From an uncultured Candidatus Saccharibacteria bacterium (GTDB lineage Bacteria > Patescibacteriota > Saccharimonadia > Saccharimonadales > Saccharimonadaceae), in the NCBI GenBank assembly GCA_938033875.1, contig CALHKG010000015.1:16393-80392 (forward strand): DNA of 64,000 nucleotides, read 5' to 3'. The position numbers and the translations under genes were made by a program. The notes beneath the pieces are model-generated. The model did no database searches, was not told where the DNA came from, and saw nothing but the letters and a program-made list of their open reading frames with translations. The first letter of the stretch is position 1. The number at the start of each line of letters is the position of its first letter. This document shows positions 40,391-56,784 of the stretch, one piece after another.

Positions 40391-40562
40391 AGTTGCTGGT
40401 ATTTTGGAAGCGGTAAGTTGGACTTTTTGGAACAGTTTTAAGGAGCTATCGCACACGATAATAGTAGTAGCTCAAAAACTCGTAATAAAAGAGGCAGTTC
40501 TGTGTGCCGATAGAGAATTTGTTGCAGCGAGAGAGATCGCTAAAAAAGATAGGAGGAGGTAA
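40188..40562 (+). pseudogene. Truncated/chimeric HIT gene (5' duplicate lacking the histidine triad)
   Basis: The first 68 codons are identical to the intact HIT gene at 41897. Then an unrelated 56-codon tail with no HxHxH-type motif. Confidence 0.8.
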
Positions 40563-40563
40563 A

Positions 40564-41886
40564 ATGGATACACAACAATTTGACGCACTCATCATTGGTT
40601 TTGGCAAAGCTGGCAAAACATTGGCGGTAGCGCTGGCAAATGCGAAAAAAAAGGTAGCGCTAGTGGAGCGGTCGCCAAAGATGTATGGCGGCACCTGTAT
40701 TAATATTGCTTGTATTCCTACTAAGGTGCTAGTCAATGCAGCCGAACATCATCAAAGTTTTGATGAGGCGATGGCGCATAAGACAACAGTGGTAGCGCGG
40801 TTGAATGAGAAGAACTATCATATGCTTGCGGATCGTGAAACAGTGAGCGTCATTGAGGGTGAGGCATCGTTCGTAGATGATCGTACTGTGAAGGTTGTGG
40901 CGGGTAGCGACGAGCTAGTAGTTAGTGCACCGCAGATTTTTATTAACACCGGTGCGGAATCAATCATCCCAGATATTCCAGGTGTTGATAAGCCGTTTGT
41001 GTATACTAGTACTGAATTGCTGGATAGAATGACGCAGCCAAAACAGCTAGCTATCATTGGTGGCGGTTATATTGGGTTAGAATTTGCCTCAACTTATGCC
41101 AAACTTGGTACAAAAGTAACAGTATTTGAGAGGGGCGATGCTCTGCTTGCACGTGAAGATCCAGCAATTGCTCGGGCTGCTACTGAAGCATTGCAGGCAC
41201 AGGGTATTGAGATTGTGTTTAGTGTGGATGTGACAGCGATTGAGGGTGAGTCTACTGCGACGATTCGCACAGTAAATCATGATGATTACGCTGGTTATGA
41301 TGCGGTTTTGATGGCTACGGGCCGTCGCCCGGCAACGATGAGCTTGAATTTACCAGCTGCTGGTGTAGCGACGGATGAGCGCGGGGCAATTGTGGTTGAT
41401 GAAACACTTCGCACTAGTCGGTCGCATATTTGGGCAATGGGCGATGTAACGGGCGGGCCACAATTTACCTATGCGTCGCTGGACGATTTTCGGATTGTGA
41501 GAAGCCAGTTGCTGGGTGACGGTCTGTACACTCGCGCCAAACAAAAAACCTTGCCGTACGCGGTCTTTATGCAAACGCCGCTAGGTCGGGTGGGTATGAC
41601 AGAGGCTGAGGCGCGTGCGACGGGGTGCGAAATTATCGTAAAAGAGCTGCCTGCTATGGCGATTCCACGCCTGCATGTTGATAATGCTACAACAGGATTG
41701 CTGCGTGCGGTGATTGATGCAAACACTGAACAAATTTTGGGTGCTAGTTTATTGTGTCGTAACTCACCAGAAGTCATTAATATTATCAAAACTGTAATGG
41801 ATAATGGCCTGCCATATACTGTGCTGCGTGACCAAATATTCACTCATCCAACGGTGAGTGAGGCATTAAACGATTTATTTACATAA
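40564..41886 (+). CDS. rclA: Class I pyridine nucleotide-disulfide oxidoreductase, RclA/YkgC-like
   Basis: 440 aa. IIGFGKAGKTLA dinucleotide motif, redox CxxxxC in YGGTCINIACIPTK, second GGGYIGLEF motif, C-terminal FTHPTVSEALNDLF. AGGAGGAGG SD before ATG 40564. RclA subfamily assigned from memory of E. coli RclA, not verified. Confidence 0.75.
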   Translation: MDTQQFDALIIGFGKAGKTLAVALANAKKKVALVERSPKMYGGTCINIACIPTKVLVNAAEHHQSFDEAMAHKTTVVARLNEKNYHMLADRETVSVIEGEASFVDDRTVKVVAGSDELVVSAPQIFINTGAESIIPDIPGVDKPFVYTSTELLDRMTQPKQLAIIGGGYIGLEFASTYAKLGTKVTVFERGDALLAREDPAIARAATEALQAQGIEIVFSVDVTAIEGESTATIRTVNHDDYAGYDAVLMATGRRPATMSLNLPAAGVATDERGAIVVDETLRTSRSHIWAMGDVTGGPQFTYASLDDFRIVRSQLLGDGLYTRAKQKTLPYAVFMQTPLGRVGMTEAEARATGCEIIVKELPAMAIPRLHVDNATTGLLRAVIDANTEQILGASLLCRNSPEVINIIKTVMDNGLPYTVLRDQIFTHPTVSEALNDLFT

Positions 41887-42099
41887 AGGAGTAATTATGA
41901 ATCACACAATTTTTGACGACATCGTATCTGGAAAAATGAAATCTTGGAAGATTTGGGAAGATGAGAAATTCCTAGCATTTTTAACACCGTTTCCAAATAC
42001 GCCGGGCTTTACCGTGGTGATTCCGAAGCAGAATCCGGGCGATTACGTATTTTCTTTGGACGATAATTTATATTCCGAAATGATGCAGGCAGTGAAAAA
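41885..42099 (+). repeat. Direct repeat copy 2 (215 nt)
   Basis: Identical to 40176-40390. Confidence 0.95.
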
Positions 42100-42355
42100 G
42101 GTTGCAAATATCTTGGAAAAAGCCTTTGATACGCCGCGAGTGGCATTGATTTTTGAAGGGACGGGTGTGGCGCACGTTCATGCCAAGTTGGTGCCGCTGC
42201 ATGGCGATCTGGCTAGCCAAACTGATGTGTGGAGTAAAGAGACTGAGTTTAGTGAAGTGTATCGTGGCTGGCTAACGACTGCAGAAGGTCCAAAAATGGA
42301 TGACGCTCAATTGGATGAAATTCAGGCACGAATTTTAGCCGTGCAAGGTAAATAG
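41897..42355 (+). CDS. HIT family protein (variant triad H-V-H-A-K)
   Basis: 152 aa. HIT-like N-terminus (IFDDIVSGK...FLAFL.PFPNTPG..VVIPK) and AHVHAKLVP in place of HxHxHxx. Confidence 0.78.
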   Translation: MNHTIFDDIVSGKMKSWKIWEDEKFLAFLTPFPNTPGFTVVIPKQNPGDYVFSLDDNLYSEMMQAVKKVANILEKAFDTPRVALIFEGTGVAHVHAKLVPLHGDLASQTDVWSKETEFSEVYRGWLTTAEGPKMDDAQLDEIQARILAVQGK

Positions 42356-43410: not shown

Positions 43411-43977
43411 TTAATAACCCATGCAAATATCCCGATAAGGTCGCGTTGCAATTTCCATTGAATCCAGGCCGAGTTTGGTTTCAACTTCACTAATCGTCAT
43501 CAGCGCACTAGCCTCATCATCTGACAAAACTTCAACTTCTACGAAAGTCCCGGCGTCTTTGATTGCGTCGATAGCTACCGTTGCCTGCGGAAAATCAGAG
43601 GACTGAAACGAGCGACGGTATTTGTTGACCTCGACCAGTTGCATCATACCGAGGTTTGCCAGTAGCTGCTTGGCGGTTGCCGCATCTTCAGGCTGAATTG
43701 GTAGGTTTGTCTCGGGCTTGATGATTACATTATTCTCCGCATGCGTCGCAGCGGTCGTTGCTGGCTTATATGTTACCTCAGCAAAACTATCACGCTGGCG
43801 AATCCGCAAGCATTCAATCGTTTGCATAAAATCGACATCAGGACGAGAATAATACGTATCAATTTCGCGGAGACTACTCTTTAGCTCAAAACCGATGTTT
43901 TGCAACCGCCCGATTAGCTCTTCAATATTGCCCGTTAGTTGGCGCTTGCGTTCGATTTCTAGTAGTTTTTTGGTCAT
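43411..43977 (-). CDS. CYTH-domain protein (class IV adenylate cyclase / triphosphatase family)
   Basis: 188 aa. N-terminal ExExK (LEIERKRQL). Size and pattern of CyaB/ThTPase tunnel enzymes. Confidence 0.78.
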   Translation of the reverse strand: MTKKLLEIERKRQLTGNIEELIGRLQNIGFELKSSLREIDTYYSRPDVDFMQTIECLRIRQRDSFAEVTYKPATTAATHAENNVIIKPETNLPIQPEDAATAKQLLANLGMMQLVEVNKYRRSFQSSDFPQATVAIDAIKDAGTFVEVEVLSDDEASALMTISEVETKLGLDSMEIATRPYRDICMGY

Positions 43978-44062
43978 TTGATAGCCTTTCTTATGGAAGT
44001 GTAGATATTTGAATATTTATTTATATGATGGTTTAATTATAGCAAGAAAGGCGAATAATTTT

Positions 44063-44401
44063 ATGACTACACACCAATTAAAATTGGCGACCGAGCCGTT
44101 TAATGCTATTATTTCTGGCAATAAGACTATCGAGTCGCGATTATATGACGCCAAACGACAGAAAATCCAGATTGGGGATCGGATTATTTTTACAAATAGA
44201 GATAATTCCGAGCAAACTGTTACCGCTGAGGTTGTTGGTTTGCTGAGATACGCGACATTTCGTGACTTATTTTTCCACAATAATCTGCGAAAGTTCGGCG
44301 GTGATAATGTCGAATGGTTAGAAAATCAAATTTCTGAATTTTATTCTCTCAGCGACCAGCTGGAAAATGGCGTGATAGGTATCGAATTTGAAATATTTTA
44401 A
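44063..44401 (+). CDS. ASCH-domain protein (native composition)
   Basis: 112 aa. ASCH pattern (L..EPF.AI.SG.KT.E.RLYD.KRQ.I..GD.I.F). Start at ATG 44063 after AGAAAGG. Confidence 0.72.
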   Translation: MTTHQLKLATEPFNAIISGNKTIESRLYDAKRQKIQIGDRIIFTNRDNSEQTVTAEVVGLLRYATFRDLFFHNNLRKFGGDNVEWLENQISEFYSLSDQLENGVIGIEFEIF

Positions 44402-44466
44402 TGATATAATAATGACCATCCTATCAGGCTACACTAAAAATCGTAGTCATCACAGGAAGGTGTACT

Positions 44467-45804
44467 ATGACTGAAGCGCTAGTCAATGATATCATTGTAC
44501 GTCCGGCAAGGGCGGACGATTTCGATTTCGTCGCGGATCTTATGATCCGGGCGCTCACACCGTTTTATGACGGTGACCACTACGCACACGCACGGCGTAT
44601 CTTTGATACGCACATGGCAGGCGGTGTTGACCGCGTCGGCCAGTTCTCGGCCGGACAGCACATGTTCATCGCCGAGAGTGATGGGCAACCCGTGGGTGTC
44701 ATTCATGTTGTCAACAAGAAACAGGGGACTGTCAAGATCAGCCCTCTCATTGTTGACACGGCATACCGAGGAAAGATGGGCGTCGGAAGCGTGTTGCTCA
44801 AGCACGCTGAAGATTTCGCCCGCAGCCTCGATGCTCGACAACTGTACTGCACTGTCGCGTCGCCGAACCAGAAGGCGCTTCAGTTCTTCCTCCGGAAGGG
44901 TTTCCTCGTCACTGGCACGGCTCGCAACCACTACAAGATGGGGGTCGATGAGCACATGCTGTACAAGCAGCTCGTTGACGAGGCGGGGTTCGACTCGCCG
45001 AATATCTCTGTGGTTCCGTTTAACGAGAGTCAGCACGCCGACAGCGCGCGAGCTCTCATCCTGTCGCAGACGAGTGACGACTTCGAAGGAGTGGACGACA
45101 GTTGGGTTGACGCCCTTTTCGCTGGCTACCGTCGTATGGAATCTGGCGACGTCAACAACAAGTTCAAGATCATCTTTGTAGCTGAGTGCAACGGTCAGGT
45201 TGTTGGTGTCGCTGGTGTGACCCCGAAGAAGGGGCAGCCTATCAAGCTGATGCCTCTCGTGGCGAAGTCGGAAGCAGCTTTTGAGGCGCTCATTATCGAC
45301 CTTCAAGGGCTGTTGGAGGATTACGGTCGCAAGCTGTACATCCACCTCGTCCCTGAGCCATGGCAGGTCGTCTGTCTCCAGCGTCACGGCTGGAGCCTGG
45401 AGGGCGTGTTCCCGGGAGGGTATGCGCCTGCCAGCGTCGTTCAGCAGTGGGGAATCAGTCTCAACAAGAAAGGAGTGTCTATGCGTAAGATGCGCATCAA
45501 GCGTCCATACTACGACGCAATCATGTCCGGCAAGAAGACTCTCGAGGTGAGAGTCGGCTATAACAGCATCAAGCGGCTGAAGGCTGGTGAGCTGCTACAG
45601 CTCGAGACCGGTCACACATCGGGCGTGGTACGGATCAAGTCGATACGTATTTACCGTAGCTTCGCCGACATGCTGGCGGCTGAGCCGTGGCAGCAGATCG
45701 TGCCGCAGGCAGAGAGCGAGAGGGAGGCTCTCCGTCTCCTTCGTAAGATCTACCCTGGCCACAAGGAGAATCTTGGTGTTCACGTCATCGAGGTTCAAAA
45801 GTAG
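44467..45804 (+). CDS. GNAT-GNAT-ASCH fusion protein, compositionally foreign (high GC)
   Basis: 445 aa. First GNAT has the acetyl-CoA motif YRGKMGVGSVLL. A second GNAT-like domain spans ~190-330. The C-terminal ~105 aa form an ASCH domain (MRIKRPYYDAIMSGKKTLEVRVGY...GELL). Hand counts of 37/60 and 33/60 G+C versus 28/60 in a uvrA line. Long spurious ORFs in other frames are typical of GC-rich DNA. Confidence 0.75.
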   Translation: MTEALVNDIIVRPARADDFDFVADLMIRALTPFYDGDHYAHARRIFDTHMAGGVDRVGQFSAGQHMFIAESDGQPVGVIHVVNKKQGTVKISPLIVDTAYRGKMGVGSVLLKHAEDFARSLDARQLYCTVASPNQKALQFFLRKGFLVTGTARNHYKMGVDEHMLYKQLVDEAGFDSPNISVVPFNESQHADSARALILSQTSDDFEGVDDSWVDALFAGYRRMESGDVNNKFKIIFVAECNGQVVGVAGVTPKKGQPIKLMPLVAKSEAAFEALIIDLQGLLEDYGRKLYIHLVPEPWQVVCLQRHGWSLEGVFPGGYAPASVVQQWGISLNKKGVSMRKMRIKRPYYDAIMSGKKTLEVRVGYNSIKRLKAGELLQLETGHTSGVVRIKSIRIYRSFADMLAAEPWQQIVPQAESEREALRLLRKIYPGHKENLGVHVIEVQK

Positions 45805-46149
45805 GACAACGAGGGAGGTGCGCATCCTCTAGGCTGGAGAAATCCACCTGAACAAATGCGAGTGACTTGGGCTAGTGTAACTGTTATCTGACTTAAGATA
45901 CAGAACAGACTATACTGTCTTTAATGAAAACACTAAAGATGAATTATTTGAAGAAATCGGTCAAGTTTGGGTTGATATTGTTGAGAATAATACACAGGAT
46001 GTCGCGTAATAAATCAAATAATACAATCGTCCTAGTGTTATCGGCATATCACATGTCTAGACCCGCATCTATTGTGTATGCTAAAATAAAACCACAAATA
46101 ACATCCGCGCGCCGTTTCGCAGCAAGAGGATGTTTATAATCTGAAAGAG

Positions 46150-46650
46150 GTGACTTTTATTAAATCCATCATCTGTAAAGACGTCTTCGGCAATCAATAT
46201 ACCGTTCCTGTTGACGAACTAAATATTCGCGTCGGCGTGTACGCGGTGATTATTGAGGATAATAAGATTCTTTTAACTCGGCAATGGGACGGATATAGCT
46301 TGATTGGCGGCGGTGTCGAGAAAGGCGAAACGATCGAGGAATCAATTGTCCGTGAAGTCAAGGAGGAAACTGGACTGACTATCACGCCAGATAAAATCAT
46401 TCACCAAGCAACCACTTTCTTCAAGCGCAACACTGAGTCGCAAGCCAATCAGTCAATCCAACTGTACTTTACCCACAGTCAGCTGCACGGGCAAATCAAT
46501 AACGACAACATAACCGACGGTGAGAAGACTTATACTAACGGCACGCCAGAATGGGTTGATCTGGATAAGATTGACGATATAAACTTTCGCCACAGCGTGG
46601 ATCTAAAAACAATTTTACAGGCGTATATTTCGCAATCTCGTACCCGCTAA
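46150..46650 (+). CDS. NUDIX hydrolase
   Basis: Nudix box GGGVEKGETIEESIVREVKEETGL. GTG start after AAAGAGG. Confidence 0.75.
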   Translation: MTFIKSIICKDVFGNQYTVPVDELNIRVGVYAVIIEDNKILLTRQWDGYSLIGGGVEKGETIEESIVREVKEETGLTITPDKIIHQATTFFKRNTESQANQSIQLYFTHSQLHGQINNDNITDGEKTYTNGTPEWVDLDKIDDINFRHSVDLKTILQAYISQSRTR

Positions 46651-46879: not shown

Positions 46880-47293
46880 TCAAGCCTCGGATAAATGTTT
46901 TAAATAATCAATAGCATCTATATAATAAGGATCTGCGCCCTCTGGAATATTAGTATCTAATAATTCCGATAACGTCATCCAGCGGTATTTTTTATGCTCC
47001 CAGCTCAATTTAACAGGAATGTCGGCTTTATCTATAATTATCTCAAAAAGTACATGTCTTGTGTTTTTGTGCTGTCTAACAAATAGCTTTTTTAAGTCAT
47101 TTGGATATATACATATGCCAGTCTCTTCTTGCACTTCTCGCGCAGTCGCCGTCTTAGAGGTCTCTTCCGATTCTACTTCTCCTCCAGGAAAATCAAGATG
47201 CCCAGGGAAATTAGGGTGCGTGTCTCCCCTATAAAGCAGCAAATATTTACCATTTTTATTCTTAATAAGCGCTTTTGATACTGCTTTAACCAT
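46880..47293 (-). CDS. NUDIX hydrolase
   Basis: Nudix box FPGGEVESEETSKTATAREVQEETGI. 137 aa. Confidence 0.8.
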   Translation of the reverse strand: MVKAVSKALIKNKNGKYLLLYRGDTHPNFPGHLDFPGGEVESEETSKTATAREVQEETGICIYPNDLKKLFVRQHKNTRHVLFEIIIDKADIPVKLSWEHKKYRWMTLSELLDTNIPEGADPYYIDAIDYLKHLSEA

Positions 47294-47333: not shown

Positions 47334-47538
47334 TGTACTGTGAACAATGAAAAGCGCCAAAAAATCCAACTTGGAGACGAAGCCACTTTTACGAATCGAG
47401 AAAACACCAGTAAGGCAGTCACTGTAAGAGTGGTTGGTTTATTGCGTTGCCAAACCCTTCAATAACCTTTTCATTCATAATAATCCTGCAAAATTTGGCG
47501 GCGTTAATATTTCATCTTCAGAATCTTTTCTCTACTAG
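47334..47538 (+). pseudogene. Decayed ASCH gene remnant (5'-truncated, frameshifted)
   Basis: Translation NEKRQKIQLGDEATFTNRENTSKAVTVRVVGLLR then, after a +1 shift, VAKPFNNLFIHNNPAKFGGVN. Collinear with residues ~30-90 of the ASCH protein at 44063 (KRQKIQIGDRIIFTNRDNSEQTVTAEVVGLLRYATFRDLFFHNNLRKFGGDN). In-frame stop at 47461-47463. Confidence 0.6.
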
Positions 47539-47552
47539 AAAATCGGCTAGAG

Positions 47553-48452
47553 CTAATAATCCAGGACTATCGTCGCCTTTACTTGTTTTAGAATTGCGTT
47601 CATGTTTGCGACGTTTATAGTTTTCGCTAGGTCATTTCTGGATAGTGGCGTAGCGGTTTGTTGATAAAAATATATGGGCACTGAAATGTAAAATGGGTCA
47701 GACGTGAAAGATTCGGCAAGGTTTTTTAGGTCGGTTGCGTGCGAGGATATGTTAAAGTTTTGTAAATATGTCTGTATAGTTTCACTTGAGCTCAGTTGAG
47801 CAAGGTCTGTATTTTTTACGGTGTAGGTTTGGCTGGTGTAATTGCCATCATAGTACGCTATAAACTTTCCTGGGCTGGACGGATAGGATGAGATTTTATC
47901 AAAACAAATGTCACGCACTAGATCTAAAAGTATTGGGTATGTGCAGAAAAATGCGGCAGTCAATTCATCGCTGGCGTCAGCAATTTCTATATCAATCTTA
48001 ACGTCTGTAAAATCCTTCGGACTATGACTGATTTTAAGAGGAGAAATCTTAGATTTTGGGTGTGAATTGCTGGGAGTGGTTTTTTGACTATCGATAAAAT
48101 ATTTTTGACAAAGAGCGAGCTGCTCTTGTAATAGCGTCATGTCTGCTATATCAATGTTGGATTGCATCTCGGCTTCTATGTGTGAGATGGACTGTTGAAT
48201 AAGAGACGCCTCAAAAGGCGTAATATCGTTGATGGTTTTTTCAAATAATGCATTAGACTCGCTTGTGAATAGTGCGGACGTAAAAAATACGCTTGATTCG
48301 CTAGTCGTGCCATCCAATTCCCCAGTGAAAGCTCGGTTGCTGCCAGCTTTTTCCGTTTCCTTTAAGAATCGCCTAATAATCAGATGCTCAAACAAGTGGC
48401 ACGTGTCGTGGTCTGCTGGTAAAGAATATGCTGAATGCAAGTTGTGGATCAT
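47553..48452 (-). CDS. Hypothetical protein with N-terminal HxxEH motif
   Basis: 299-aa ORF. HLFEH near the N-terminus resembles the inverted zincin motif of M16 peptidases, but the protein is far shorter than M16 enzymes. Assignment is tentative. Confidence 0.45.
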   Translation of the reverse strand: MIHNLHSAYSLPADHDTCHLFEHLIIRRFLKETEKAGSNRAFTGELDGTTSESSVFFTSALFTSESNALFEKTINDITPFEASLIQQSISHIEAEMQSNIDIADMTLLQEQLALCQKYFIDSQKTTPSNSHPKSKISPLKISHSPKDFTDVKIDIEIADASDELTAAFFCTYPILLDLVRDICFDKISSYPSSPGKFIAYYDGNYTSQTYTVKNTDLAQLSSSETIQTYLQNFNISSHATDLKNLAESFTSDPFYISVPIYFYQQTATPLSRNDLAKTINVANMNAILKQVKATIVLDY

Positions 48453-53730: not shown

Positions 53731-55248
53731 TTACTTGTGTCGAAAGAACGAGGAAACGCCGCCAGTTAATTGTTGTAAGATGCCGTTTGAGCGGGACAAT
53801 TGTAGGCGTAATTTATCTTTGGCGTGTGGTGTGATTATGACGTCCCGCCAATCTGGTTTCGGGCGAGCGGATTTGCTTGTTAAGACTTCAATTGTGTCGC
53901 CGTGCTGTAATTTGTAATTGAACGGCTTCATTACGCCATTGATCTTAAATCCGCTTGCGCGCGCCGCGATGTCGGAGTGAATTCGGTAGGCATAATCCAA
54001 AGGAAACGCTCCGCGAGGCAAATCATAAATGTCGCCCTTTGGTGAATATACGAAAATCCTATCAGAAAACAGCTTCATTCGGAATTTGTTGGAGTCGAAT
54101 CGCTTTCCTTCGCTAATTAAAGCAGCGGCTTCTTGAAGTTCGCGAATCCATGACAAATCGGCTGGCATAGTTCCGATTTTTCCTTTTTTATAGGCGTCGG
54201 TCAATTTTTGCTCATTATAATGGAAGCTGGCCGCTAATCCGCGCTCGGCATATTCGTGCATTTCTTTGGTGCGAATCTGGAATTCAACAATTTGTCCGCT
54301 CGGAGTTTGTACGGTTGTGTGAAGACTTTGATATCCATTTGGTTTTGGATTGGCAACGTAATCTTTAATCCTCTCATACATCGGCTGATACATCTCGTGT
54401 AGAATTCCCAAAACCAGATAGCCGGTCGATAAATCATCAACAATTATTCTTAGGGCAATCAAATCATAAATCTTATCGATATCGCCAACTTTGTCCAATT
54501 TCTTAAACAGACTATAAACGCTCTTAACACGCCCGTCCATCTGAAAAACTAGCTTTTCCGCCTTCAGTCGCGCTTCAACTTCGCGGCGAACGTGATCCAA
54601 TTTTCGTTGCGATTTTTTCAGTCGACTGTCCATCAAATTTTTGGTTTCTTGAAAAGCTTTCGGCATCAAATATCTAAAACTCAGCTCCTCCAATTGAACG
54701 CGAACTCGTCCCATGTTTAAGCGGTCGGCCAGCGGCGCAAAAACTTCAATTGTCTCTCTGGCAATTTTTTTCTGCTTTTCTGGCGTCATAAATTGCAGCG
54801 TTCGCATATTGTGCAGGCGGTCGGCTAGCTTGATAATTATCACGCGCACATCTTCGCCCACGGCAATCATCAACTTGGTCAAATTGTCCTTGGTGTGTGA
54901 TAAATAACTATCCAAATTTCGCATTCCGGCGCGAGCTTGTGAAACTTTAGTTACGCCATCCACCAGAAACGCCACATCGCGTCCAAACAAACTCTCCAAA
55001 TCGTCCAAAGTTGCGTCGGTATCTTCAACGGTGTCGTGTAAAACTCCCGCCACAACCGTATCGATGTCCATGCCCCATTCAATCAGAATTCCCGCCACCG
55101 CCAATGGGTGATTAATGTAGGGTTCGCCACTTTTGCGCTTTTGTCCAGCGTGCTTTTCCGTGGCGTAATCGATTGCGCTCGCTAAAACTAATACTGGCAC
55201 TTCGTCGTATTTTTGTTCAGCAATTGACAATAACTCTTCGCGCGTCAT
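53731..55248 (-). CDS. rel: Bifunctional (p)ppGpp synthetase/hydrolase, short form (HD-Synth-TGS, no ACT/RRM)
   Basis: HD (HPLAVAGIL...LHDTVEDT), synthetase (YQSLHTTV, EFQIRT), TGS (VYSPKGDIYDLPRGAFPLDYAYRIH). Start ATG 55248 lies 6 nt after TATAAT on the minus strand. The longer ORF to 55470 overlaps gap and is rejected. Confidence 0.9.
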   Translation of the reverse strand: MTREELLSIAEQKYDEVPVLVLASAIDYATEKHAGQKRKSGEPYINHPLAVAGILIEWGMDIDTVVAGVLHDTVEDTDATLDDLESLFGRDVAFLVDGVTKVSQARAGMRNLDSYLSHTKDNLTKLMIAVGEDVRVIIIKLADRLHNMRTLQFMTPEKQKKIARETIEVFAPLADRLNMGRVRVQLEELSFRYLMPKAFQETKNLMDSRLKKSQRKLDHVRREVEARLKAEKLVFQMDGRVKSVYSLFKKLDKVGDIDKIYDLIALRIIVDDLSTGYLVLGILHEMYQPMYERIKDYVANPKPNGYQSLHTTVQTPSGQIVEFQIRTKEMHEYAERGLAASFHYNEQKLTDAYKKGKIGTMPADLSWIRELQEAAALISEGKRFDSNKFRMKLFSDRIFVYSPKGDIYDLPRGAFPLDYAYRIHSDIAARASGFKINGVMKPFNYKLQHGDTIEVLTSKSARPKPDWRDVIITPHAKDKLRLQLSRSNGILQQLTGGVSSFFRHK

Positions 55249-55318
55249 ATTTATATTATACAACTTTGTAGTATAATTAAGAAAAGCTAAAGCGAAAATA
55301 TCTAACAGGGAGGGCGAT

Positions 55319-56341
55319 ATGGCTGTAACGAGAATAGCAATTAACGGCTTCGGGCGAATCGGACGCAATGCGTTTAAGATTGCTAACGAGCGAAGCGACT
55401 TGGAGATTGTCGCGATCAATGATTTGACTGACACGAAAACTTTGGCGTATTTGTTGAAGCATGATAGCAATTACGGTGAGTACGGACGTCAAGTTGATTT
55501 TACGGAAAACGAGCTGATTATTGAGGGTAAGTCGGTTAAGGTGCTGGCTGAGAAAGATCCAGAAAATCTGCCGTGGCGAGATTTGAATATTGATGTGGTG
55601 ATTGAATCGACAGGATTTTTCACTGATAAAGATGGCGCGGGCAAGCACTTAACGGCTGGCGCAAAGCGTGTAGTTATCAGTGGTCCGACGAAGTCTGAGG
55701 GAGTCGATACGATTGTTCTGGGAACTAACGATGACAAGGTAAAAAATGCGACGCCAATCGTATCTAACGCTAGTTGTACGACCAATTCTTTGGGTGCGGT
55801 TATGGCGATTTTGGACGCGGAGTTTGGCGTTGAAAAGTCAATGCTAACGACGGTACATAGTTATACGGCTAGCCAAAAGCTTCAGGATGCGCCATCCAAG
55901 GATCTTAGAGAAGGTCGTAACGCCGCCGAAAACATTGTCCCGACTACGACTGGCGCCGCAATTGCTGTAACTAAAACCTTGCCGCAGCTAACTGGAAAAT
56001 TTGACGGACTTAGTGTGCGCGTACCGACTCCAGTTGTGTCGCTTAGCGACGTGACGGCGCTTCTCAGGGAAGATGTGACTGTCGAGCAGGTAAATGACGC
56101 GTTCAAAAAAGCCGCTCAGAGTAATTTCTATCAAGGCATTTTGGGTGTTTCTGAAGAACCTTTGGTGAGTCGCGACTTCATTGGCAATTCATATTCTGGA
56201 ATTGTCGACCTTCCATTAACGAAGGTAGTTGGCGGTAATTTGATCAAGGTTATGGTCTGGTATGACAATGAATGGGGCTATTCGAACCGGCTGGTTGAAC
56301 TGGTGGCGGATGTGGCGTATTATCTGAAAAAGAGTGAATAA
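55319..56341 (+). CDS. gap: Glyceraldehyde-3-phosphate dehydrogenase
   Basis: 340 aa. INGFGRIGR, active site SNASCTTN, WYDNEWGYS. Confidence 0.96.
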   Translation: MAVTRIAINGFGRIGRNAFKIANERSDLEIVAINDLTDTKTLAYLLKHDSNYGEYGRQVDFTENELIIEGKSVKVLAEKDPENLPWRDLNIDVVIESTGFFTDKDGAGKHLTAGAKRVVISGPTKSEGVDTIVLGTNDDKVKNATPIVSNASCTTNSLGAVMAILDAEFGVEKSMLTTVHSYTASQKLQDAPSKDLREGRNAAENIVPTTTGAAIAVTKTLPQLTGKFDGLSVRVPTPVVSLSDVTALLREDVTVEQVNDAFKKAAQSNFYQGILGVSEEPLVSRDFIGNSYSGIVDLPLTKVVGGNLIKVMVWYDNEWGYSNRLVELVADVAYYLKKSE

Positions 56342-56451: not shown

Positions 56452-56784
56452 TCAGCCGCGGCGTCGACGAATCTTGTCGACGATCACCATCGCGATGGCG
56501 ATTACGAGGAAGACGATCGCCATATAGGCGGGAGCGTCATACACTATCGTCGATAGTGATGATAATCCGGGGTAATACGGGTAATACGGTACCCCCGATG
56601 CCCTCATCTCTTCCAGTTCCATCCACGCACTCAGGATAAGTGCGAGGTGGATTGCGGCGAAGTCGGCTGCCGCGAACATGCTTGCTGCGACCAGTCGGTG
56701 ACGGTACAGCGCTGTGACTGAGGTCACAAACATACCGGCGATCAGAGTGATAGCTACGACTACAGCCAAAGCAGTGGTGGGCAT
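56452..56784 (-). CDS. Hypothetical small membrane protein (cassette B, high GC)
   Basis: 110 aa, 3 TM, YYPYYP loop, RRRRG tail. 34/60 G+C in line 56461-56520. Own promoter, ~100-nt structured leader, AGGAGG SD and terminator. Confidence 0.5.
   Translation of the reverse strand: MPTTALAVVVAITLIAGMFVTSVTALYRHRLVAASMFAAADFAAIHLALILSAWMELEEMRASGVPYYPYYPGLSSLSTIVYDAPAYMAIVFLVIAIAMVIVDKIRRRRG

Follow-up and report, generated by a model that had tools for sequence, protein, structure and literature searches.

A GC-rich GNAT-GNAT-ASCH gene in Saccharibacteria: vertical inheritance, a standalone ASCH partner and codon choices consistent with selection on the mRNA

Does a single gene whose G+C content (GC) stands far above its surroundings have to come from a foreign genome? 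The question is raised by one gene in a 64,000-nt stretch of an uncultured Candidatus Saccharibacteria genome (contig CALHKG010000015.1, positions 16,393–80,392; this whole stretch is called the window, and its own coordinates are used throughout). The gene lies at 44467–45804 on the + strand, starts with ATG, encodes 445 aa plus stop and fuses two GNAT acetyltransferase domains to one ASCH domain. A preliminary description of the sequence had attributed its composition to horizontal acquisition from a high-GC donor, with an actinobacterial host as a candidate. In our analysis, the composition was old and vertically inherited, and there was no mark of a recent foreign origin. The best explanation of the whole is a conserved module of this fusion and a standalone ASCH protein, which would act in cytidine-acetylation chemistry and whose fusion gene would have been under long-term selection for a paired mRNA. 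We assign this explanation a probability of roughly 0.55.

The raised G+C content was present as described. The fusion gene had a GC of 0.565 and a GC at third codon positions (GC3) of 0.693, with means of 0.438 (standard deviation 0.037) and 0.430 (standard deviation 0.062) for the 62 window open reading frames (ORFs) of ≥100 aa, i.e. z ~3.5 for GC and ~4.3 for GC3. GC at second codon positions was ordinary (0.37), so that the anomaly sits at the third and, to a lesser extent, the first codon positions. The intergenic DNA on the two sides of the gene had a GC of 0.37 and 0.39. Thus, the shift coincides with the reading frame, and its edges are sharp.

A second gene overlapping the fusion in the antisense or +1 frame could constrain the synonymous sites and so produce such a composition. 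The long antisense ORF noticed earlier (302 aa, 371 stop-free codons) does exist, and the +1 frame holds another of 204 aa. However, both lengths were inside the range of synonymous-codon shuffles (P=0.07 for the antisense ORF; P=0.015, uncorrected for five frames, for the +1 ORF), and the synonymous divergence of the fusion gene was not below that of its neighbours. An overlapping gene was therefore rejected as extremely unlikely, and the long alternative-frame ORFs are a by-product of the codon composition of the fusion gene.

The protein searches led to close relatives. The best 120 protein matches were full-length and 79–96% identical, and the named ones among them belonged to Candidatus Nanosynbacter. 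Full-length orthologs were found across Saccharibacteria at 68–97% identity. In GTDB contigs with one genome per species, all 50 of the 50 genome loci were from Saccharibacteria, including Microsaccharimonas at 72% identity. In every lineage down to 72% identity, the fusion gene was GC-rich with respect to its flanks (gene GC 0.53–0.59 and GC3 0.64–0.74, flanks 0.38–0.50). The proportion of synonymous differences (pS) between the window and close relatives was 0.09–0.26, similar to that of neighbouring genes, and rose to 0.5–0.7 in distant orthologs. As GC3 was still high at this distance, synonymous sites have largely turned over while GC3 persisted.

Outside Saccharibacteria, the nearest proteins were at most 52% identical in an exhaustive search of 1.84 billion representatives, which returned 1205 relatives. 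No GC-rich member stood beside Saccharibacteria in a neighbour-joining (NJ) tree; the GC-rich proteins with N-terminal extensions nested within a large clade of the candidate phyla radiation (CPR). The deep nodes of this tree were poorly supported, strict monophyly of Saccharibacteria had a low bootstrap value and two long-branch sequences intruded. An actinobacterial sister group was not seen in the tree and was rejected. The proposed acquisition from a high-GC donor is contradicted on several sides: the best hits are close relatives with shared synteny, the composition is common to orthologs down to 72% identity, no outside protein exceeds 52% identity, the tree lacks a high-GC sister and the four-fold sites of Ala, Gly, Thr and Pro are native. 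Nothing points to a recent transfer or to an actinobacterial host as the donor.

The codon usage of the fusion gene was distinctive, and the same signature was found in no other window gene. The codon shares in the fusion versus the window genes were 0.77 versus 0.16 for ATC, 0.93 versus 0.39 for CAC, 0.93 versus 0.40 for AAG and 0.46 versus 0.04 for CTC, and TTA and TCA were absent from the fusion gene. The four-fold sites of Ala, Gly, Thr and Pro had a native composition (0.51 versus 0.46). Across the clade, two-fold sites had a GC excess of +0.28 to +0.42, compared with 0 to +0.19 for these four-fold sites. GC3 varied with the base at the second codon position (0.80 for A, 0.74 for T, 0.54 for C and 0.52 for G) and was 0.77 before a codon starting with A or T versus 0.62 otherwise; in the reference genes, this order is inverted. 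At codon junctions, A/T-A/T steps were below those of synonymous shuffles in ten of the ten GC3-rich orthologs (z -1.0 to -3.3), while controls had a mean z of +1.4. Avoidance of long A/T runs was rejected, as run-length statistics were not significant and only the junction A/T-A/T steps were. Codon selection by tRNAs on split boxes was set aside, because the effect tracks neighbouring bases, including in the Val, Leu, Ser and Arg boxes, and no other window gene behaves alike.

Substitutions were polarised by parsimony on NJ trees. In the fusion gene, 133 GC-to-AT and 95 AT-to-GC changes were counted overall; the GC-to-AT:AT-to-GC counts were 57:22 at two-fold and Ile sites and 29:41 at Ala, Gly, Thr and Pro sites. 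The per-site ratio of GC-to-AT to AT-to-GC transitions was 0.87–0.94 in the fusion gene and 1.35–1.75 in its neighbours, which implies an equilibrium GC3 of ~0.52–0.57 and 0.36–0.43, respectively. A simple claim of GC3 at equilibrium, based on the overall counts, was tempered by the 57:22 at two-fold sites and by an internal transition/transversion control. The two-fold sites may still be drifting down slowly.

The same counts bear on an older transfer, in which an ancestor of these Saccharibacteria acquired the gene from a GC-rich donor, amelioration remained incomplete and the GC3 excess is fading history. The net GC-to-AT flux at two-fold sites (57:22, and 278:139 in a wider set) favours such a history. 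The family is also mobile elsewhere (a transposase of insertion sequence (IS) type and a relaxase-like gene at locus L055, recombinases at L051 and L052 and an insertion between scpB and scpA at L057; see below), it has GC-rich members in Streptoalloteichus (P0147) and on a 64%-GC contig (P0124 at locus L053), and its identity is roughly 50–58% across phyla. However, a donor signature is expected to be strongest at four-fold sites, and those of Ala, Gly, Thr and Pro are native. A neutral amelioration model with the measured rates of the neighbours predicted a four-fold GC3 of 0.70–0.78 for any plausible GC-rich donor, and 0.51–0.65 was observed. The flux of 2.6:1 is well below the ~6.6:1 expected from the background at a GC3 of 0.78, even though parsimony bias would inflate the observed ratio. 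Moreover, the avoidance of A/T-A/T steps at junctions and the excess folding reported below exceed what composition gives, and outside the clade there is neither a relative above 52% identity nor a high-GC sister in the tree. In our reading, simple fading of a donor composition does not fit, and the regime has shifted towards G/C at synonymous sites. An ancient transfer is thus rather unlikely as the source of the excess.

GC-biased gene conversion at a recombination hotspot would also raise GC3 locally. Intragenic mosaicism was observed among close relatives (e.g. at locus L002, the part encoding the first GNAT domain was 90% identical and the rest 98–99%), and the AT-to-GC rate per site was elevated. 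But both edges of the shift are exactly those of the ORF: GC3 is 0.36–0.38 in the partner gene, 65 bp upstream, and the intergenic flanks have a GC of 0.37 and 0.39. In addition, the excess depends on codon context, and the neighbouring genes are equally mosaic without any rise in GC3. Gene conversion is therefore very unlikely to be the cause.

The fusion mRNA was predicted to fold more strongly than its shuffled versions. As folding score, the predicted minimum free energy (MFE) was summed over six 222-nt windows and compared with 10–24 shuffles each. In the strict null (DicodonShuffle type), third bases could be exchanged between codons only if these agreed in amino acid, in their first two bases and in the base that follows them, which keeps the protein, the codon usage and every dinucleotide count. 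The MFE sum was -507 kcal/mol, compared with -450±11 for codon shuffles (z=-5.3) and -452±8 for the strict null (z=-6.7). Under the strict null, four diverged Saccharibacteria orthologs reached z=-5.8, -4.6, -3.5 and -2.4, and eight members of other lineages reached z=-5.9, -5.6, -3.6, -2.4, -1.8, -1.6, -1.1 and -0.8. For control, 15 distinct genes were tested, three of them (from the window) under both nulls; these 18 tests gave z between -1.3 and +1.9 and covered window genes, immediate neighbours, the partner ASCH gene in four lineages and genes from distant loci. The partner ASCH gene of the window had no excess mRNA structure (z=-0.7). Selection on RNA should favour the sense strand, and this strand indeed had stronger z and lower energies than its antisense counterpart. 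The excess was strongest over the third that codes for the first GNAT domain (z=-4.65).

The best-supported reading of the composition would be long-term selection for a stable, highly paired fusion mRNA. We infer that the same selection is reflected in base composition as the enrichment of G/C at third positions flanked by A/T. Low or controlled translation, resistance to RNases and protection of the transcript from a single-strand-directed activity are candidate reasons for such an mRNA. One conserved 5' RNA structure was rejected, given the weak support from RNAalifold and the absence of any Rfam 15 match at E≤1 in 43900–46200. The signal resembles generic pairing formed anew in each lineage, together with a few local hairpins, and not a single conserved structured RNA. 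A local hairpin (CGTCCG-GCAAGGG-CGGACG, 44500–44518, + strand) was found by a terminator-like scan within codons 12–18 and is followed by a T-rich stretch. The RNAalifold helix that overlaps it had compensatory changes at two pairs (118/144 with AU:13 and GC:8; 127/135 with CG:16 and GC:6). Some cells of the helix were broken, and its register was shifted in some clades.

The domain architecture of the protein was confirmed. Pfam matched Acetyltransf_1 (PF00583) at residues ~9–159 (E=1e-16, 61.5 bits, cutoff 20.7) and ASCH (PF04266) at residues 343–444 (E=1e-11, 45.6 bits, cutoff 21.2), and it had no match at E≤0.01 in residues ~165–340, the place of the second GNAT domain. An AlphaFold2 model built on a 36-sequence alignment had a mean predicted local distance difference test (pLDDT) score of 91 and a predicted template modelling score (pTM) of 0.83 and showed GNAT topology at residues 180–331; the GNAT fold (beta-alpha-alpha-beta-beta-beta-alpha-beta-alpha-beta-beta) was present in both domains of the model. 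The best Foldseek matches in the PDB were tandem-GNAT proteins aligned across both domains (~340–380 columns), and matches to single-GNAT proteins reached a template modelling (TM) score of 0.88. The two GNAT domains also matched each other in BLASTP (E=7e-7). The second GNAT domain arose by internal duplication and has lost its loop for binding coenzyme A (CoA).

GNAT domain 1 spans 44488–44976 (+, residues ~8–170, Pfam Acetyltransf_1). It meets the acetyl-CoA motif (Q/R)-x-x-G-x-(G/A) after strand beta-4 with R101-G-K-M-G105-V-G107 (44767–44787, +), and G105 was kept in at least 85% of the family rows. Its hairpin reads K84-K-Q-G-T-V-K90-I-S-P93. GNAT domain 2 spans 44998–45471 (+, residues ~178–335) and was assigned as a paralogue of domain 1 by the topology of the AlphaFold2 model, Foldseek and BLASTP. 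The glycine-rich CoA loop was not found in domain 2, where the sequence reads K-S-E-A at the equivalent place. When conservation was assessed across 36 family members, the most conserved residues were all in this domain: P253-K-K-G256, K260, P263, Y291, H293, W309, Y319 and Q327-W328. W309 was invariant in the family, and the motifs PKKGxPIKLMP and QQW belong to this domain. A similar Lys-rich hairpin, K-K-x-G...K..P, occurs in both GNAT domains.

The fused ASCH domain spans 45484–45801 (+, residues ~340–445) and is of the GKER type. This type is one form of the ASCH octapeptide G-x-K-x-x-(E/T/S)-x-R (definition from bioRxiv 10.64898/2026.02.27.708502). The octapeptide of the fusion was read as G355-K-K357-T-L-E360-V-R362 (SGKKTLEVR; 45529–45552, +), and GxKxLExR was kept in every aligned family member that bears an ASCH domain. 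Only recently were ASCH proteins reported to erase N4-acetylcytidine (ac4C) from tRNA, with the Lys and the Glu of the octapeptide essential for deacetylation in TthASCH, EOLA1 and the ASCH domain of TRIP4 (bioRxiv 10.64898/2026.02.27.708502). In the same work, some GKER proteins (ZmASCH, TRIP4) were inactive on the ac4C nucleoside, several others were active, and the GKER member ZmASCH was a nuclease for single-stranded RNA (ssRNA), not a deacetylase. The sixth position of the octapeptide in YqfB is Thr24 (GKTR type; PMC6972931). The earlier description had cited YqfB as the characterised ASCH member; the ASCH domain stands, but it is not of the YqfB type, since neither the fused nor the partner ASCH has the YqfB-type Thr24 and both have Glu there.

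The fusion gene has a companion. A standalone ASCH gene (MTTHQLKL..., 112 aa) lies just upstream at 44063–44401 (+) and matched Pfam ASCH with E=4e-8 (34.3 bits, cutoff 21.2). CPR partners begin with MT(x)HQMKL, and on this basis the start of the window gene was placed at the internal ATG 44063. Its octapeptide reads G19-N-K21-T-I-E24-S-R26 (44117–44140, +) and is likewise of the GKER type, and its GC of 0.36–0.39 is native or low. The fused and the partner ASCH are only remotely similar to each other. The nearest solved relatives of both copies, which are also the sequence matches of the fused copy, are the small Pyrococcus proteins PH0355 (2z0t), PF0469 and PF0455. Relatives of the partner fell into two allele classes (92–98% versus 69–77%) that do not track the divergence of the fusion.

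The pairing is conserved. The partner adjoins the fusion in nearly all Saccharibacteria loci with a full-length gene, even where the wider neighbourhood differs, and the shared gene order is hydrolase, CYTH, ASCH, fusion, NUDIX, NUDIX. Five of the eight distant members that were fetched have an orthologous ASCH gene of 107–113 aa directly downstream in convergent orientation (Moraniibacteria L051, Paceibacterota-related L054 and the CPR contigs L052, L056 and L057), so the partner is orthologous across phyla. The fusion and the standalone ASCH form a conserved two-gene module that is common in Patescibacteria and uncharacterised. The architecture had been called unusual, but GNAT-GNAT-ASCH is widespread in Patescibacteria and not rare.

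Several observations were made around the module. A frameshifted remnant of a second gene like the partner ASCH lies at 47352–47526 (+), between the second NUDIX gene and the gene at 47553–48452; it consists of two tblastn pieces in different frames, 52–59% identical to partner residues 31–88, and the same fragment occurs in relatives (e.g. L002 12769–12942). In 12 Saccharibacteria genomes of ~50% GC (L039–L050), a deletion derivative of the module was found (e.g. L041 9798–10399). It consists of a fragment of the partner ASCH (residues 16–56) followed by a 146-aa ORF that keeps only the ASCH domain of the fusion (84–85% identical), i.e. the entire tandem GNAT is lost and the ASCH is kept. The NUDIX genes of the window (46150–46650, +, and 46880–47293, -) matched the PADLOC candidate defence family PDC-S07 with E=4e-10 and 3e-16, and two NUDIX genes also occur near the module in the distant CPR locus L056.

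The wider family comprised several architectures: GNAT-GNAT-ASCH of ~445 aa, the same with N-terminal extensions of ~165 aa (one relative has SARP/OmpR-type domains), GNAT-GNAT alone of ~330 aa (including Streptoalloteichus) and GNAT-GNAT-MazG. The last is represented by P0141, in which Pfam detected a C-terminal domain like MazG, a nucleotide pyrophosphatase; the C-terminal segment of P0153 resembles that of P0141 in the alignment. P0207 has an N-terminal GxKxxExR segment (FSGHKKFELRV, read from the sequence; no Pfam hit), which suggests an ASCH in the opposite order. The named relatives came from Uhrbacteria, Moraniibacteria, Paceibacterota, the 'Patescibacteria group' and one Acidobacteria metagenome-assembled genome (MAG). 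Source annotations were generic ('GNAT family N-acetyltransferase', 'ASC-1-like (ASCH) protein/RimI-like enzyme'). A specific NCBIfam assignment was rejected, as all matches were far below their own cutoffs.

Outside Saccharibacteria, the fusion had a GC of z=-3.3 to +2.2 with respect to its own genome. The lowest value came from the Acidobacteria MAG (L055 6153–10172; fusion GC 0.43, surroundings 0.52), where its flanks hold a Replic_Relax-like gene and an ORF (388 aa, uncalled) for an integrase-core (IS-type) transposase; this copy is clearly on a mobile element. The genes scpB and scpA are normally adjacent, and on one CPR contig (L057 7212–10563), the fusion and ASCH pair lies between them like an inserted two-gene cassette. 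Recombinase genes were found near the fusion at L051 and L052, the latter also with a resolvase, a methylase and an HNH gene. At L053 1–8578, the GC-rich P0124 (N-terminal extension, 64%-GC contig) adjoins an MmeI-type methylase/restriction gene, a large helicase, an MZB (DUF1998-type) gene and a PLD nuclease; this neighbourhood would be a DISARM-like defence cluster. Over long time scales, the family is thus mobile as a whole; within Saccharibacteria, it is inherited vertically and in conserved synteny.

What could the module do? Its domains, motifs, pairing and distribution are shown by the results above; the substrate and the direction of the chemistry are our inference. GNAT domain 1 would transfer an acetyl group from acetyl-CoA, and GNAT domain 2, with the paired Lys-rich hairpins and the invariant Trp309, would hold the acceptor together with the ASCH pocket. 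This acceptor would most likely contain cytidine, either within an RNA (tRNA or other) or as a nucleoside or nucleotide of cytidine. N4-acyl-cytidine may be bound or deacylated by the ASCH domains. The pair might thus be a writer and an eraser, or a toxin and an antidote, for cytidine N4-acetylation. The earlier suggestion of a role in acetylated nucleoside or RNA metabolism is plausible in so far as the intact GKER octapeptide links the protein to acetyl-cytidine or RNA chemistry; its substrate is a prediction.

Several points weigh against our explanation of cytidine-acetylation chemistry combined with selection for a paired mRNA. On the RNA side, the folding score is a sum of predicted energies over 222-nt windows, compared with 10–24 shuffles each. 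The 5' part has the strongest structure z but the lowest GC3 (0.57–0.67), so the signals of composition and arrangement do not simply coincide. RNAalifold on 26 orthologs gave a weak consensus, with a covariation term of -5.1 and double changes in 10 of 66 pairs. In three loci at 68–69% identity (L032–L034), the fusion matches its 50%-GC genomes, i.e. the gene is kept without a GC3 excess. Two-fold sites have a net flux from GC to AT, and some of the excess may therefore be history in slow decay. Transition rates per GC site were alike at two-fold and four-fold sites (1.29 versus 1.43), so two-fold sites are not specially protected, and the parsimony was applied to a recombining population. 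On the protein side, the matches of the GNAT part (RimI, SpeG, streptothricin acetyltransferases) are generic and score far under the family cutoffs, and it would seem futile to fuse a catalytically intact ASCH to a writer, unless the ASCH serves for binding or has another acyl group as its target.

A toxin–antitoxin (TA) or conflict module of the (PIN)-GNAT-EVE + ASCH kind would be compatible with the composition findings. In such a system, a GNAT guided by a PUA-like domain would acetylate (aminoacyl-)tRNA or a nucleic-acid base, and the standalone ASCH would reverse or regulate this. The published operons have the same layout, in which the GNAT is followed by a PUA-like domain at the C-terminus and an ASCH gene lies next to the fusion (PMC7641849). 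The cassette at L057 appears to have moved as a unit, defence or mobile genes neighbour the family at L053 (MmeI-type methylase, helicase, MZB, PLD) and L052 (resolvase, methylase, HNH), the deletion derivative in 12 Saccharibacteria genomes keeps only the ASCH part and mRNA structure in the 5' coding region would be apt for keeping a harmful product tightly controlled. On the other hand, the domain is ASCH and not EVE, and PIN and AAA_17 are missing. The neighbourhood of the pair in Saccharibacteria is stable, of housekeeping type (CYTH, NUDIX) and conserved in synteny, and ribosomal and cell-division genes surround the pair in several CPR genomes. Known GNAT toxins have a single domain and ribbon-helix-helix (RHH) antitoxins. 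In PADLOC-DB v2, the only match of the fusion was to PDC-M11A over a generic GNAT stretch (E=6e-4), and the partner ASCH had no hit; a known defence system was rejected on this account. We regard a TA module as possible, but only as a tentative alternative.

Small-molecule detoxification was considered as well. Here, the GNAT would acetylate and the ASCH deacylate an antibiotic or nucleoside analogue, e.g. of the streptothricin type or one of the actinobacterial N4-acyl-cytosine antibiotics. The organism is presumably an epibiont of Actinobacteria, NCBIfam gave weak matches to the streptothricin acetyltransferases STAT and Sat3 (E=1e-7), and PDB profile matches included nourseothricin and streptothricin acetyltransferases. 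The neighbours are of the nucleotide house-cleaning type (two NUDIX, CYTH), relatives carry MazG and YqfB accepts diverse N4-acyl-cytosines (PMC6972931). However, the STAT match reached 31 bits with a cutoff of 420, and its score equals those of RimI and SpeG, i.e. generic GNAT similarity. Nothing ties the ASCH copies to antibiotic substrates, and the conserved pairing with a second ASCH and the mRNA-structure signal are left unexplained. Detoxification is therefore unlikely.

A bolder version of the cytidine-acetylation proposal is that the module is a helicase-free writer/eraser or toxin/antidote pair for N4-acetylation of cytidine in ssRNA, a compact alternative to TmcA/NAT10 with a wide distribution in Patescibacteria, and that the mRNA of the fusion itself has been shaped at synonymous sites, for a long time and in several phyla, into an unusually paired form to escape or throttle the activity. 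This would be a long shot. If it were true, the 'foreign' GC would be the footprint of self-protection or expression control written into codon choice.

The locus is a caution for genome scans. A sharp GC island was read as a transfer from host to epibiont, yet it is old, vertical and specific to codon context, so composition alone misleads here. One non-ribosomal gene with synonymous sites tuned for mRNA pairing across lineages would be an unusual and measurable case of selection in very small genomes. The module is also a candidate for cytidine-acetylation chemistry or a toxin–antidote pair in Patescibacteria, a group with few spare genes.

The fusion gene probably has its own promoter. In a leader alignment of 26 Saccharibacteria orthologs, a -10-like box (TATAAT, 44405–44410, +) was present as TATAAT or TAGAAT in most; a consensus promoter scan did not call it, because a good -35 was not found. 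Between this box and the ribosome-binding site lies a 5'-leader element, GCTAC(N8-10)GTAG(C/T) (44428–44447, +), which is a hairpin-capable inverted repeat. It contains the string AAAAATCGTAG (44436–44446), which was invariant in the 26 orthologs while the surrounding leader diverged. RNAalifold paired leader columns 42–46 with 61–65, with G-C to G-U changes only, and the element matched no Rfam family. It could be an operator or an RNA hairpin. The ribosome-binding site GGAAGGTG (44455–44462, +) is nearly invariant and lies 5–8 nt upstream of the start codon in all orthologs.

Elsewhere in the window, adjacent genes at 40504–42355 and in the matching loci L002–L011 differed sharply in divergence among close relatives: the gene at 40504–41886 had a pS of 0.01–0.05 and 99–100% identity, and the next one (41897–42355) had a pS of 0.33–0.52 and 86–97% identity. 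Recombination in this population appears mosaic. A second GC-rich ORF, a putative gene, lies at 56452–56784 (-; 110 aa, GC 0.56, GC3 0.64); it is hydrophobic and resembles a membrane protein. It is located in the gap after a GAPDH-like gene (55319–56341, +), which was omitted from the greedy ORF set owing to its overlap with a RelA/SpoT-like ORF (53731–55470, -). The latter runs ~150 nt into the GAPDH-like gene, and its real start is probably further downstream.

Among known systems, the closest in layout are the (PIN)-GNAT-EVE operons, which nearly always include an adjacent ASCH gene and were predicted to be a TA or base-acetylation system, experimentally uncharacterised (Bell et al. 2020, BMC Biol, PMC7641849); as cited there, they go back to Iyer et al. 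2013. Both have a GNAT with a C-terminal PUA-like domain, an adjacent small ASCH gene and some restriction or defence neighbours. The present fusion, in contrast, carries ASCH (PF04266) instead of EVE and a tandem GNAT-GNAT. PIN, AAA_17, type I restriction–modification or prophage genes are frequent in those operons; here, PIN and AAA_17 were found neither in the window nor in the fetched loci, and restriction- or recombinase-type neighbours were limited to L053 and L052. Those operons occur in Proteobacteria, Firmicutes and archaea, whereas the present module occurs mainly in Patescibacteria and has a housekeeping-like context in Saccharibacteria. Compared by layout and not by GNAT sequence, the module would be an analogous variant and not a member.

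The GKER-type ac4C deacetylases (TthASCH, EOLA1, Pyrococcus Pku proteins) share the octapeptide with its Lys and Glu, and the partner is likewise ~110 aa long. Unlike these enzymes and YqfB (PMC6972931), one ASCH is fused here to a tandem GNAT, which is not described for the characterised enzymes.

Tandem GNATs such as the clavulanate-pathway protein 2wpw, Legionella VipF (6wqb/7wx5), the Clostridium acetobutylicum glucosamine N-acetyltransferase 5kf1 and the Eis-like 4my0 also have two GNAT folds per chain and one canonical CoA site. Their identity to the fusion was 12–16% and the TM score ~0.35 with a high root-mean-square deviation, so the inter-domain arrangement differs, and none carries an ASCH. 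Neither the K-K-x-G...K..P hairpins nor the W309/QQW motif is known from these tandem GNATs.

In TmcA/NAT10, a GNAT domain likewise works with acetyl-CoA, and the cytidine has to be presented by an RNA-binding module (PMC2500205). Their helicase/ATPase module, DUF1726 and tRNA-binding tail have no counterpart in the fusion, and no search gave a sequence relationship beyond the GNAT superfamily. The type II TA toxins TacT, AtaT and KacT are single-domain proteins of ~170 aa paired with RHH-type DNA-binding antitoxins. The present module has a three-domain protein and an ASCH partner instead; as two-gene modules in which a GNAT acts on the translation apparatus, these toxins may serve as a working analogy.

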